Positions 22,366 through 25,394 are shown, counted from the first letter of the stretch. The stretch: DNA of 64,000 nucleotides from Rhodothermales bacterium (GCA_965232485.1 OZ246975.1:1624663-1688662), one strand, 5' to 3'. The notes: generated by a model from the sequence alone, not told the origin. Numbers and translations: made by a program.

Positions 22366-23070
22366 TTATTCTGCCAGGTACTGCTCCAATTCCTGAACGC
22401 CAAAACTGATTTCCGCCTTGCTCTGCGCCCTATTGTCATCAAATTGGCTCACTGAAACATCGCGAGTGGGCTTATCGCCTTCTGTCTTGCTTGCCATATG
22501 AGCCTTGTTTCGAGCAAGAAAATATTCCGCGTTGTCAACCGCCTTGCTCGCCACTGTTGCGGCTTCTTCATCGCTCCAATGGCCTTCAAGTATCCCGATC
22601 GCTTGGGATACGACATCAGCATGAGGCGAATGATTATCCACCATAGACTTCGTATGATGGGCTATGTATGAGGAAGCGCCTTCTGCGTCCTCGTTCTCCA
22701 GCAGGGCATTAACGGTGGCATGAGACACCAGTTGAGGAACAGTAACGCGCAAAATGGGATTTTGCACATTATCTTCTATAATCTTGTCAGCTCCTTCGCT
22801 CAGTTTTTTGGCGGTTATGGCGCCTGCTTCGTACTGATCTATCAGCCCATGAATCGTTACGCCAGCCTCATTCACGGCATCCGGAACCTCCGTTCCTTGA
22901 GATTGATAACCTTCTTCGACATCGCCAGCCCTTACTACCATGGCTATGCTGGGCGAAGATGTTGCGTTGCCAACTGCTGGGGATGTTGAGTCGGTTACCG
23001 TCCCGCATCCTGCAAACAGGATCAATGCTGCAATGGCGACGACGTATTTATTTGCAATCATGTTTTTCAC
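22366..23070 (-). CDS. hypothetical lipoprotein A
   Basis: Lipobox LFAG-C; 234 aa, lower GC than the flanks; start may be GTG 23070 or ATG 23061. Confidence 0.8.
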   Translation of the reverse strand: MKNMIANKYVVAIAALILFAGCGTVTDSTSPAVGNATSSPSIAMVVRAGDVEEGYQSQGTEVPDAVNEAGVTIHGLIDQYEAGAITAKKLSEGADKIIEDNVQNPILRVTVPQLVSHATVNALLENEDAEGASSYIAHHTKSMVDNHSPHADVVSQAIGILEGHWSDEEAATVASKAVDNAEYFLARNKAHMASKTEGDKPTRDVSVSQFDDNRAQSKAEISFGVQELEQYLAE

Positions 23071-23102
23071 CTTGCGTTAAGTTGCGATTGAAGTAGGTGG
23101 TG
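22985..23102 (-). repeat. 118-bp inverted repeat copy 1 (5' UTR + lipoprotein signal peptide)
   Basis: The reverse complement matches 24994-25111 at 115/118 positions. Confidence 0.95.
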
Positions 23103-23134
23103 GCGCGCAGCCAAATTGAATCGGCTTCAGTCTT

Positions 23135-23166
23135 GATATAAGCCCCCCCCCTAAATATCAAGTCAA
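23135..23166 (-). promoter_or_regulatory. putative promoter with G9 tract in spacer
   Basis: Minus strand TTGACT-tgatattta-G9-ct-TATATC upstream of lipoprotein A. Confidence 0.5.
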
Positions 23167-23531
23167 GAAATCTTTTTTCATGTAATTTTCACAAAAATAT
23201 AATTATTTGAACGATCTCTATTTATTGTAAATTTTTATTTTTCAATTCTTTGTACCAGAGCCGCGTTCAGCGTAACGGCTGTGCGAGGCGAGACAACCGT
23301 TCACGCGTGGAGCGTATGCACCAATAATATTGTGCGCACAAAAAACGACGCGCACAGGAGGGAGCGCAGCCTGTGCGCGGCCATATCGGCGGCGATAGAA
23401 TCAATCGCCGGACAATGGGAAGTTCATAACAGGGGCGCTGCGCTTGTGCGTACGACCCGCTACTGGATTGAGTCGAAGCGCCAACCTTCCCTTCGGGCCG
23501 TGCGCACAAGCGCGGCGACCTTGCCCTTCGC

Positions 23532-23578
23532 ATAAAGAACCCCGCCGCCGTACCGAGGAACGAGGTACGGCGGCGGGG
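23532..23578 (-). terminator. strong hairpin / probable minus-strand terminator
   Basis: 15-bp perfect stem ccccgccgccgtacc / ggtacggcggcgggg, followed on the minus strand by TTCTTTAT. Confidence 0.6.
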
Positions 23579-23947
23579 CCTGGGCCAGACGTGACAGACG
23601 TTTCAGCTTGGCGGGAATGCCTGATTTTTGTTTCCGATGCGCGCGCCTGGTTTTGACCTGCGCAACCCGTCGCGGATCGTATTCGCGAATAACTCATTAG
23701 TAGTTCATGGCGCCTTCCCTTTTAAGGCATACCCCCCTTGTACATATGTTCCGAGTCGTTCAGCTATCGCCGCGAACGGGCGCCTCCGTTCCTCCGGTAC
23801 AGGACAGGAATCGTTCTCTTTTCGCCGCGCGTGTAGACTCGGACAGCCGTTACGCCGAACACGGATCAGACAATGATCGCACACTTGTAACCTAATTCAC
23901 ATGGACGGGCTGGGGTCGATTTTTTTCCTGCGGCGGTCCGAAAGGGC

Positions 23948-23983
23948 TTGACAGTGACGAGGGGGGGGGGGGGGGGGTATATT
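23948..23983 (+). promoter_or_regulatory. putative phase-variable promoter with G17 tract
   Basis: TTGACA (23948-23953)-gtgacga-G17 (23961-23977)-TATATT (23978-23983), about 95 bp upstream of the beta-barrel gene. Confidence 0.65.
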
Positions 23984-24078
23984 GGGAGTGTCGCGCTCGG
24001 CTCCGGCCGGGGCGGCGCCCGGTTTCGGCTGGGCTTCGTCGTCTGTCGATCATCTCTAAACTCTATATAACCAAAGCC

Positions 24079-24666
24079 ATGACCAAACATCTTCTTCTTC
24101 TCGCCTTCGTCGTCTCTCTCTTCAGCGCCAATACAGCGTATTCCCAACAGGGTAATGGACTTAGTGGTTCATATTCTGTTTCCGTTGGGTATATAAATAC
24201 GTCTTCTGGCTCTCATGGCGACCTTCTTCCCGATCATGTCTCCAATGTACTTACGAAGGGGATGTATATTCGTTATGGTTTTGAGTATGGGAAAATTATA
24301 AATCCCTTTATGTTTATTTCTTATAATCGTAGTTATGATGATTCTGTTACCCCAATTACTCCTCAATTGTGGAATCTCTTTGGTGGCTTTAAGTTCAGAA
24401 ATTTTTATAGTAAAAAATTGCCTTTATATACTACTATATTGGTGGGAATTGAAAATGCTAAATTGAGGATAAAAGACGATTCTTATTTGTTACAAAGAGC
24501 AGATCAAAATGCTGTTGTTGGTCTGGAAGTCGGAATAAAATATCCAATTGAATCTTTTGTTTCTGGAGATATTGGTGTTGGAATGCGAAAGCCATTTACT
24601 TCTCTTTATAAGGGAATTGATGTACATTTTCGTTTGGGAATTTCTTTTGATTTTTCTAAACGTTAA
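24079..24666 (+). CDS. small outer-membrane beta-barrel protein (AT-rich)
   Basis: Sec signal peptide (…ANTAYS-Q), alternating aromatic/Gly strands, C-terminal HFRLGISFDF beta-signal-like end; very low GC. Confidence 0.7.
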   Translation: MTKHLLLLAFVVSLFSANTAYSQQGNGLSGSYSVSVGYINTSSGSHGDLLPDHVSNVLTKGMYIRYGFEYGKIINPFMFISYNRSYDDSVTPITPQLWNLFGGFKFRNFYSKKLPLYTTILVGIENAKLRIKDDSYLLQRADQNAVVGLEVGIKYPIESFVSGDIGVGMRKPFTSLYKGIDVHFRLGISFDFSKR

Positions 24667-24731
24667 GCGGCTCGCGCTCCGGATTCGGTAAACTCGCATC
24701 TTACCCCGCTCCAGAGCGCGAGAGAGCGCCC

Positions 24732-24905
24732 CTACTCGTCGAAATCCACCACGCCGCGCTCCCAAAGCGTCTTGATCGCGTGGCCTGCGTCCTGGGTGTT
24801 TACCCTGGCGCCTTTGCATATGGCCGAGAGCGGTCCGGACGCTTCGCCCTGCCGCGCCCACAGGAAAGCATACACGCGCCACACGCTGGCCGGTCCGGAC
24901 CACCT
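24732..24905 (-). pseudogene. possible winged-HTH protein fragment
   Basis: Stop-to-stop frame RWSGPASVWRVYAFLWARQGEASGPLSAICKGARVNTQDAGHAIKTLWERGVVDFDE*, with a wHTH-like pattern, cut off at the IS end. Confidence 0.35.
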
Positions 24906-24907
24906 CT

Positions 24908-24995
24908 AGCCGCTGACCAAGGCGGCGTAACTCACCGCAACCCTGCACTTAAAACGACCCGGACTGACTGTCCGAATTTCCCGAACCATTTCTCA
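24908..24995 (+). mobile_element. isolated IS3 right-end fragment
   Basis: Reverse complement of 7904-7991 (83/88 identical), ending ...ccgaaccatttctCA. Confidence 0.85.
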
Positions 24996-25111
24996 CCACC
25001 TACTTCAATCGCAACTTAACGCAAGGTGAAAAACATGATTGCAAATAAATACGTCGGCGCCATCGTAGCATTGATCCTGTTTGCAGGATGCGGGACGGTA
25101 ACCGACTCAAC
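24994..25111 (+). repeat. 118-bp inverted repeat copy 2 (5' UTR + lipoprotein signal peptide)
   Basis: Matches the reverse complement of 22985-23102 with 3 mismatches. Confidence 0.95.
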
Positions 25112-25394
25112 TACCTGGTACTGCGAGATAACGCTAAGCCTCGTTGGCTCAACGATAGGGAACCTTAGTTCGCCGAGCGGAACAGGAACGGGCACGGGCA
25201 GGGGGGAAACCATGCAAGAAGCGCAGAACCAGGCTTTAAACGGTGCTTGTACTCAACTTATCGCTGAGATCAGCGGCAGTGACCTTCTTCTTGATGCTTG
25301 TAAAGAAGGGAGGGATATAGAAGTACAAGAGCAATTCGGCAACTTATCTCTTGTGAGTGTTCTCAATCGTTCTGAAGATTGCGGGACTGAATAA
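25026..25394 (+). CDS. hypothetical lipoprotein B (Cys-containing mature part)
   Basis: The first 29 aa are near-identical to lipoprotein A (lipobox LFAG-C); the unrelated mature region has 4 further Cys and a GTGTGTG linker. Confidence 0.7.
   Translation: MKNMIANKYVGAIVALILFAGCGTVTDSTTWYCEITLSLVGSTIGNLSSPSGTGTGTGRGETMQEAQNQALNGACTQLIAEISGSDLLLDACKEGRDIEVQEQFGNLSLVSVLNRSEDCGTE

Follow-up and report, generated by a model that had tools for sequence, protein, structure and literature searches.

An inverted repeat of a lipoprotein leader in a Rhodothermales bacterium: a candidate scar of leader capture beside a poly-G promoter

The stretch of DNA analysed here comprises 64,000 nucleotides (nt) of the genome of a Rhodothermales bacterium (GCA_965232485.1, OZ246975.1:1624663-1688662; this whole stretch is hereafter called the window, and positions are counted from its first letter unless stated otherwise). 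Between positions 22,366 and 25,394 the window carries two divergently oriented lipoprotein genes, A and B, whose 5' ends are inverted copies of one 118-nt sequence, the two copies being referred to as arm A and arm B. The features on which the description of this repeat depends are the following:

22985..23102, minus strand: arm A, the native 5' untranslated region (UTR), start, signal peptide, lipobox and CGTVTDST of gene A, a leader that is kept in orthologues
24994..25111, plus strand: arm B, an inverted copy of arm A with three derived substitutions
22366..23070, minus strand: gene A, an open reading frame (ORF) of 234 amino acids (aa) from a GTG, with a probable ATG start at 23061, encoding a lipoprotein of a helical-repeat, genus-restricted family
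25035..25394, plus strand: gene B, 119 aa from the ATG, joining the leader of A to a mature domain from a small four-cysteine lipoprotein family that is unrelated to A
24908..24993, plus strand: a remnant of an IS3-family insertion sequence (IS), namely the last 86 bases (right end) of a 1287-bp element, which stops exactly at the start of arm B

A repeat search of the window found the arms to be identical at 115 of 118 positions (97%), with 1891 nt between them. Outside the arms the similarity is lost at once on both sides: for the 200 nt past the arms on the gene side, 1943 of 2000 shuffles score equally, and for the 200 nt before them on the spacer side, 924 of 2000 do. The repeat is real and far beyond chance, and the initial annotation of this DNA had described it correctly as an inverted, near-identical leader module with abrupt ends. 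Each arm holds 32 nt 5' of the GTG, the signal peptide, the lipobox FAGC and the residues CGTVTDST of the mature protein; the likelier ATG start (25035 in B) is preceded by AAGGTG, and 41 nt of the arm lie 5' of it. All three mismatches are confined to 10 nt (25057, V to G; 25064, synonymous; 25066, A to V), the two that change an amino acid falling in the hydrophobic core of the signal peptide, and the exact runs common to both arms are 62 and 45 nt long. Both translations display the hallmarks of lipoproteins (MIANKYV(V/G)AI(A/V)ALILFAG-C, with a basic N-terminus, a hydrophobic core and a lipobox ending in Cys), and both leaders have the features expected of bacterial lipoproteins processed by signal peptidase II. 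The mature proteins had been called dissimilar, and this held as well: in BLASTP comparisons of B with A, or with the paralogue C introduced below, the leader alone aligns, and a profile built from nine mature proteins of the A/C family matches mature B over its first nine residues only.

For gene A, the shared leader is native to its family. The paralogue C, encoded elsewhere in the same genome, is 44% identical to A, and A-type and C-type members are present in most genomes of the genus, all of them with ...ALILFAGCGT(A/V/G)TDS... followed by the A/C mature domain. At the three mismatches, the orthologous leaders of related genomes carry the arm A version, and arm B is the derived one. The A family comprises 14 clusters among 5.8 billion proteins, and A matched no family in Pfam or NCBIfam. 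An AlphaFold2 model of A, based on 12 sequences, has a mean predicted local distance difference test (pLDDT) score of 72 with block means of 84-97 across residues 71-180, which is consistent with a helical repeat with a confident core; a Foldseek comparison of the model with the PDB returned nothing at E<=0.001, the top hits being designed helical repeats and TPR proteins.

Full copies of the leader number two in this genome, which is complete in one contig of 3,162,098 bp, and a diverged leader is also found on paralogue C. A degenerate leader motif occurs four times in two of 285 genomes of the order: three times in the genome studied here and once in G007, a metagenome-assembled genome labelled Rhodothermales. 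The same motif matched one record among genome contigs, again G007, and none among metagenome contigs, a collection in which the lineage is not represented. It had been proposed that a constant leader is being reused at this locus to export newly acquired cassettes, and a count of leader copies with different payloads had been suggested as a check. The count revealed no series of payloads, so that leader reuse survives as a one-off event, with B as its chimeric product, and the notion of a widely reused constant leader does not.

For gene B, a word-based search returned B alone, which was misleading, as an exhaustive HMMER search with the mature part (residues 30-122) then gave 18 other representative clusters (best E 3.6e-15, 53% identity, 85-176 aa). 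When B was aligned with 10 homologues, all 10 differed from it at the N-terminus, and nine of them show a lipobox-type leader (for example ...FAYACGKDN, ...SFPACDSGS and ...LILAACEDN). Within this family the four mature cysteines are invariant or nearly so, a glycine-rich SSPSGxGxGxG stretch is conserved, and a conserved block, [WYF]xC[ED]V[TS]L, starts one residue past the end of the arm. The frame of B stays open for 93 codons beyond the junction, a length equalled in 165 of 20000 shuffles. The B-family profile had no match in 11 other genomes of the genus, and B is its sole match in its own genome. A fold of B predicted without an alignment was unusable (pLDDT 57). These features indicate that B is a real gene rather than a chance frame, and that it is foreign to the genus. 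B is chimeric: its family relatives each bear their own, different leader, the B family is missing from the 11 other genus genomes searched, and the leader is typical of the genus. Its own UTR, signal peptide and linker appear to have been replaced in frame, at the domain border, by a copy of those of its neighbour, and the replacement is judged to be precise because the arm ends one residue before the conserved domain of B. A consensus scan for a sigma-70-type promoter upstream of B, on the strand of B, found none.

The same arrangement would also result if the leader of B had always been related to that of A, with the 118 nt recently homogenised by gene conversion. Such concerted evolution would be compatible with the 97% identity of the arms, with the clustering of the three mismatches inside 10 nt, which could be the remains of a conversion tract, and with the fact that both products are lipoproteins with a similar linker length past the cysteine. 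However, leaders unlike the A type were found in 10 of the 10 aligned B relatives, and no residual similarity persists past the arm ends, where older homology should fade gradually. The leader is genus-typical, and yet the search of the 11 other genus genomes gave no further member of the B family. We consider this explanation improbable.

Nine sequencing runs from six studies hold all or part of the stretch, with no RNA run listed, and contigs assembled at k=31 were placed for four of the 16 listed runs (X1, X2, X6 and X7). These contigs bear on the suspicion that the inverted copy is spurious and stems from a fold-back or chimeric read. A genome in a single contig is probably a long-read assembly, and such assemblies can hold fold-back errors; nevertheless, in X1, X2 and X7, which belong to three studies, contigs run free of differences from 25082, 30 letters inside arm B, into gene B. 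In addition, an X1 contig (23073-25023) covers the whole spacer and 30 letters of each arm, with one gap and otherwise identical, and a collapsed 118-nt contig shows raised depth. The arms themselves differ at three bases, and B continues as a gene of a conserved family. An assembly artefact is extremely improbable on these grounds.

Regarding the orientation of the spacer, contigs coming from each of the four sides extend 30 letters into an arm, one short of bridging, and the 31-letter words are the same for both orientations because the stretches of perfect identity, 45 and 62 nt, are longer than k. Arm A is crossed completely, in the reference orientation, by a single contig that comes from a different study (X6, 22906-23355), and no contig shows the other orientation, contigs otherwise breaking within the arms. 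In X6, the depth is about 1 over 25123-25339, as compared with 4-6 nearby, a coverage too low to judge whether B is absent. In the X2 contigs, examined over 21000-27500 of the window, the depth is 367 on the left flank with A and 378 on the right flank, and 268-290 over the spacer, gene B and the leucine-rich repeat (LRR) gene that lies beyond it. The X2 population may partly carry a different structure between approximately 23014 and 26905, contig depths being a poor measure of this.

On its spacer side, arm B is bordered by the IS3-family remnant. The remnant corresponds to element positions 2501-2586 of the query at 98.8% identity, and it has 26 matches in the genome, at up to 98.8%. Approximately nine near-full-length copies of the element are present (for example 2148237-2149523 in genome coordinates), together with many internally deleted copies or end-only fragments. 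A full copy contains a frame with an HTH_Tnp_1 domain and another with HTH_21/rve domains, and its ends, AGAGGTGGTTCGG... and AGAAATGGTTCGG..., are terminal inverted repeats. On the basis of these orfA/orfB-type domains, the terminal inverted repeats and the match to the element's end, positions 24908-24993 can be assigned to the IS3 family. A second end fragment of this element is located in the window at 7904-7991.

Alternatively, positions 22985-25111 might constitute a mobile element of 2.1 kb, with the arms as its terminal inverted repeats and the gene for a small secreted protein as its cargo. Long terminal inverted repeats around a low-GC cargo gene would conform to this view, and a similar cargo gene is mobile in G007. 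There, the A homologue has a single leader copy and is interrupted after ...GNTT by a clean insert of 703 bp and 40% GC (locus L040, 8550-10050; also L012 and L039). This insert contains an ORF for a secreted protein of 197 aa that has a start and a signal peptide of its own. The insert, however, lacks the arms and has no terminal repeat detectable by eye. At the locus studied here, the arms are functional starts of two real genes, with which they are in frame, 22984/25112 shows no visible target-site duplication, and no other copies of such an element occur in the genome, which together render the mobile-element explanation very improbable. The split arrangement of A is also seen in the proteins P0015 and P0005 from other assemblies of the G007 lineage, and the body of A in G007 is truncated at its 3' end by a fragment of the module termed M2 below. 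The 5' ends of A-type genes have therefore undergone two independent rearrangements, and neither case resembles a reusable 'constant leader' system.

The two lipoprotein genes belong to a larger islet that separates moaC from dtd, and its outlines are given by three further features:

22228..27344, no strand assigned: islet between moaC and dtd, 5.1 kb, specific to this genome and holding A, the spacer, B and the LRR gene
25448..27145, minus strand: gene for an LRR protein of 565 aa with Pfam LRR families, Por_Secre_tail (the C-terminal sorting domain of the type IX secretion system, T9SS) and TIGR04183, convergent with B
22308..22341, minus strand: terminator-like hairpin 3' of gene A, a 15-pair stem followed by a T run

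Homology to the corresponding loci of four relatives (L015, L016, L018 and L019) ends at 22225-22227 and returns at 27345-27350, and FloA-MoaC-Dtd-Ham1 are contiguous in six of 10 other MoaC loci of the genus examined. The GC content of the islet is 0.32-0.55, as compared with 0.60 genome-wide. The LRR protein has a HEIGH zinc-protease-like motif, as read from the translation, and its gene includes 72-nt tandem units at 26662-26947. No tRNA gene that might have served as an integration site was found within 15000-35000. A search of 21000-27500 against Rfam gave a sole match, to sbcD RNA, with 22.6 bits as compared with a threshold of 40 (E 0.33), and this was taken as chance.

The 1.9-kb spacer between the arms is composed of the following elements:

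23135..23166, minus strand: promoter of A, TTGACT (23166-23161), a poly-G9 tract (C9 at 23143-23151) and TATATC (23140-23135)
23297..24038, plus strand: module M1, whose 3' end is a promoter and 5' UTR common to at least seven secreted-protein genes; genome copies are at most 84% identical
24079..24666, plus strand: ORF for a small secreted protein of 195 aa with a signal peptide, mostly at 32-41% GC, beta-barrel-like and of no named family
24671..24901, plus strand: module M2, a hairpin (24673-24720) and, on the minus strand, the 3' part of a winged-helix ORF of 86 aa

The spacer had been said to contain two promoter-like sequences, and both were recovered, each with a homopolymer. For the promoter of A, the sequence reads TTGACT, 9 nt, G9, CT and TATATC, which gives a distance of approximately 20 nt between the boxes, and a consensus promoter scan (16-18-nt spacers) omits it. 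The same layout is found upstream of the A homologue in G007, where TTGACT is followed by 8 nt, G13 and TATTAT. For the M1 promoter, TTGACA (23948-23953) and TATATT (23978-23983) are separated by 24 nt, consisting of 7 nt and G17 (23961-23977). Its six paralogous promoters have TTGAC(A/G), 17 nt and then TATGCT, TATTCT or TAGGTT, with no homopolymer tract; in the window copy, G17 replaces a G-rich stretch and lengthens the spacer to 24 nt. A homopolymer thus lies between the -35 and -10 boxes in the A, M1 and G007 promoters. The length of the tract upstream of the A gene differs between species (G9 here and G13 in G007), and the M1 tract reads G17 in both the assembly and the X2 contig, as compared with G16 in that of X1, a difference that may be a sequencing error. 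The C9 tract at 23143-23151 is identical in contigs of three runs. Promoter spacers with poly-G or poly-C are familiar from contingency genes such as porA and opc of Neisseria. Both spacer promoters are like these in that a G/C homopolymer sets the distance between -35 and -10, but the tracts here give over-long spacers (approximately 20 and 24 nt), and length variation is only hinted at. In the genome as a whole there are 22 G or C tracts of at least nine bases, 11 of them of 13-23 bases, for which approximately one would be expected by an estimate from base composition. Several of the G/C tracts are followed directly by a -10-like TAnnnT, and others adjoin (GT)n where a repeated element ends (near 2859k, 2863k and 3091k).

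The M1 promoter and UTR module (23880-24040 of the window) has the general form TTGACA, 17 nt, a TATGCT-like box and then GGGAG...GCTCGGCTCCGG, and it stands before seven different secreted-protein genes. Further copies of the promoter are located near positions 1545.2k, 1515.2k, 472.8k, 1971.0k, 3110.3k and 2011.6k of the same genome. The hairpin module, with five copies, comes after several of these genes; the flanks are 75-90% identical, and the intervening genes are unrelated or strongly diverged. Judged by this arrangement, units of M1, gene and hairpin look like exchangeable expression cassettes. The 195-aa ORF has a 71% DNA match in genome G009, and it matched no family in Pfam (hmmscan at E<=0.1 and E<=5) or NCBIfam. 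TraO (PF10626) was considered for this ORF because its atlas features resemble TraO at a score of 0.98, 28 of the 30 hits being TraO, and was dismissed as Pfam was unsupportive at E<=5. Two other barrel-like ORFs of approximately 200 aa, one in G007 and one at 1971k of the same genome, likewise matched no Pfam family at E<=5. For M2, seven copies were aligned, five copies of the hairpin occur in the genome, and the full 86-aa winged-helix ORF lies beside a MarR-like gene at the 1971k locus. The hairpin of M2 does not qualify as a special structure, its stability being no better than that of shuffles (z = -0.34).

No recombinase gene had been visible in the window at the outset, and the domain search agrees with this: Phage_integrase and Resolvase domains were absent from all 53 window ORFs scanned (7 + 46). 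The genome as a whole encodes three tyrosine recombinases (PF00589) and no serine recombinase (PF00239), and the nearest is 51 kb from the locus. When the units of M1, gene and M2 and the insert of G007 were compared with integron cassettes, all three tyrosine recombinases of the genome were found to lie away from these loci. One of them, of 317 aa, has as neighbours a 278-aa ORF for a spare TaqI_C specificity module and an Eco57I-type restriction-modification enzyme of 962 aa (G000:C1:1700165-1704931; L043 1166-5932). At that locus a 48-nt inverted repeat of 92% identity (1701531-1701578 and 1702443-1702490) links the TaqI_C module to the Eco57I-type specificity domain; it is the sole recombinase-linked inverted repeat in the genome, with the recombinase gene directly alongside. 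The restriction locus 51 kb away looks like a phase-variable type IIG restriction-enzyme shufflon. Its repeat is unlike the lipoprotein arms, 351 of 2000 shuffles aligning equally well. The restriction locus would illustrate how programmed inversion appears in this genome, and the lipoprotein locus is without a recombinase.

The layout of the locus nevertheless raises the question of a two-state switch, in which recombination between the arms would flip 23103-24993 so that the poly-G promoter of A drives either A or B, with slippage in the tract as a second layer of control. The exchange might proceed through RecA, as in the sap system of Campylobacter fetus, or through a recombinase whose gene lies outside the locus, the route suggested for Ureaplasma, and the gene deprived of the A promoter would come to lie behind the M1 promoter, the gene for the small secreted protein and the hairpin. 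Several properties of the locus would suit such a switch. The arms span the UTR, ribosome-binding site, start and leader, so that either gene would remain intact after the flip; a single promoter abuts an arm, and B is without one by the consensus scan; and B is a real gene of a conserved family with its frame and domain preserved. Furthermore, RecA-dependent exchange is usually said to require shorter stretches of identity than the 62- and 45-nt runs found here. On the other side, the contigs contain one crossing in the reference orientation and none in the other (with the breaks within the arms noted above), there are two leader copies only, the window is without a recombinase gene, and the nearest tyrosine recombinase has a target of its own that is unlike the arms. 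The edge of arm B is set by IS debris, which points to accident over design, and the arrangement is not conserved, G007 having a single leader copy and an A gene split by the 703-bp insert. We therefore regard a two-state switch of this kind as doubtful.

The locus can be compared with several characterised systems. The vpma locus of Mycoplasma agalactiae has a conserved 5' UTR and lipoprotein signal peptide, recombination sites no further than 72 nt upstream of the start codon, and one promoter serving the whole locus, with a homopolymeric tract immediately 5' of the -10 box (PMC2268961). In vpma, a tyrosine recombinase gene, xer1, is part of the locus and is required, six genes take part, and both orientations have been demonstrated. 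The present locus is alike in its shared UTR and signal peptide, its single promoter abutting an arm and its homopolymer near the -10 box, a combination that favours the switch. It differs in having two genes and no recombinase in the window, in that the second orientation was not seen in contigs, and in that the shared piece reaches into the mature protein, with mature parts from unrelated families. The vsp genes of M. bovis and the vsa genes of M. pulmonis are grouped with vpma as Xer1-type site-specific inversion systems among surface-lipoprotein genes. A recombinase in or beside the locus, as this type would require, has no counterpart here (none among the 53 ORFs, the nearest being 51 kb away).

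For Ureaplasma parvum, inversion at short inverted repeats alternates a surface protein with an unrelated neighbouring ORF in UU172/UU171 and in mba/UU376 and makes chimeric genes (PMC3047005). The inversion was shown there at the DNA and protein levels, and the element is conserved across two species. These Ureaplasma elements are the closest match to the idea of one promoter and leader serving two unrelated payloads, whereas the arrangement studied here is confined to one genome. The closest mechanistic model for the switch is found in Campylobacter fetus, where RecA-dependent inversion of a promoter segment takes place between oppositely oriented S-layer genes with a conserved 5' region and, to our knowledge, needs no dedicated recombinase. 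In sap the homology extends over several hundred bases and the cassettes are homologous family members, while here it is 118 nt and the payloads are unrelated. A layout of the sap type, with oppositely oriented genes that share a 5' region and flank their only promoter, appears to be present by consensus matching alone; the single surface-protein family that the sap type would require is lacking, as the mature A and B proteins are unrelated and fall in different families. In Borrelia hermsii, the unrelated lipoproteins Vsp and Vlp share a short start-codon and leader sequence that acts as a recombination handle, and gene conversion moves silent archived copies, dozens of cassettes on linear plasmids, to one expression site. 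The present locus differs from this in having two complete genes, in inverted orientation, on the chromosome.

On balance, the repeat probably records a leader capture that took place recently; as a switch it is no more than a candidate, and not a dedicated one. Under leader capture, the islet between moaC and dtd would have held the resident-family gene A, which was joined by B with a mature domain foreign to the genus, and the 5' UTR, signal peptide and linker of B would have been swapped in frame for an inverted 118-nt copy of the 5' end of A. As the junction lies at the domain border, B should still be translatable from the ribosome-binding site of A and processable as a lipoprotein. Later, an IS3-family element may have settled directly upstream of the copied piece and been mostly deleted, with 86 bases left, and M1, the gene for the small secreted protein and M2 would have come to occupy the space they now fill between A and B. 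A keeps its own promoter, with G9 lying between its -35 and -10 boxes. The M1 promoter is probably off, with G17 stretching its spacer from 17 to 24 nt, and B is probably silent or weakly read because it has no consensus promoter and is placed behind a hairpin and IS debris. Variation in expression at this locus would most likely arise as the poly-G tracts gain or lose bases. General homologous recombination could also flip the 1.9-kb spacer, given the 62 and 45 nt over which the arms match exactly, and such a flip would presumably be a rare event, an occasional by-product. Such a flip of 23103-24993 is geometrically possible with no frame broken; it would put the promoter, UTR and leader of A before B, and A itself would end up downstream of M1, the small gene, the hairpin and the IS remnant. 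The findings speak against a dedicated inversion system: there are two copies, no recombinase in the window and an arm edge that coincides with an IS remnant.

A number of observations weigh against leader capture as the full explanation. Divergent genes that share a UTR and leader around a single nearby promoter have the layout of a promoter-swap switch. The junction is in frame and the B domain is intact, and B looks kept for use, yet it is without a promoter of its own here, which an inversion would supply. No process was identified that gives an inverted, partial copy of 118 nt, and the coincidence with the IS end may only mark where an older, longer homology was cut. Slippage is merely hinted at by the G9/G13 difference between species and by the G17/G16 difference, a possible error, and C9 is constant in three runs. 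Moreover, both poly-G promoters have spacers longer than 17 nt (approximately 20 and 24 nt), which would make the sequenced state 'off' for both and would be odd if A is expressed. In a more specific proposal, the locus would be a minimal two-gene surface switch, found beyond the host-restricted pathogens from which switches of this sort are known, and general recombination between the 118-nt leaders would toggle one poly-G-gated promoter between a resident lipoprotein and a horizontally acquired one. Leader grafting would then be the step that plugs incoming cargo into an existing phase-variable expression site. This proposal appears rather unlikely.

Two further groups of genes were noted elsewhere in the window. 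On the minus strand at 483-3939, an OLD-like AAA ATPase with a TOPRIM domain (2224-3939) adjoins a UvrD-type helicase (483-2531), a pair that resembles the Gabija defence system. Matches to DUF5687 were found in three ORFs (4663-5457, 6316-7800 and 10381-10797), one of them full-length and two partial, and one lies near the IS fragment at 7904-7991.

If leader capture alone holds, the locus would provide a clean and datable case in which an acquired secreted-protein gene was fitted with a translation start, signal peptide and lipobox typical of its host, with the cut placed precisely at the border of the domain, a useful case study that changes no view. If the arms do recombine, a promoter-swap switch would be able to arise in one step from a partial inverted duplication, and surface variation of the vpma, Ureaplasma and sap type would be extended to Rhodothermales. 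The wider pattern in this genome may merit more attention than the repeat itself, as the promoter module present at seven loci, the 11 G/C tracts of at least 13 bases and the restriction-enzyme shufflon together suggest an organism that diversifies both its surface and its DNA methylation by several routes.

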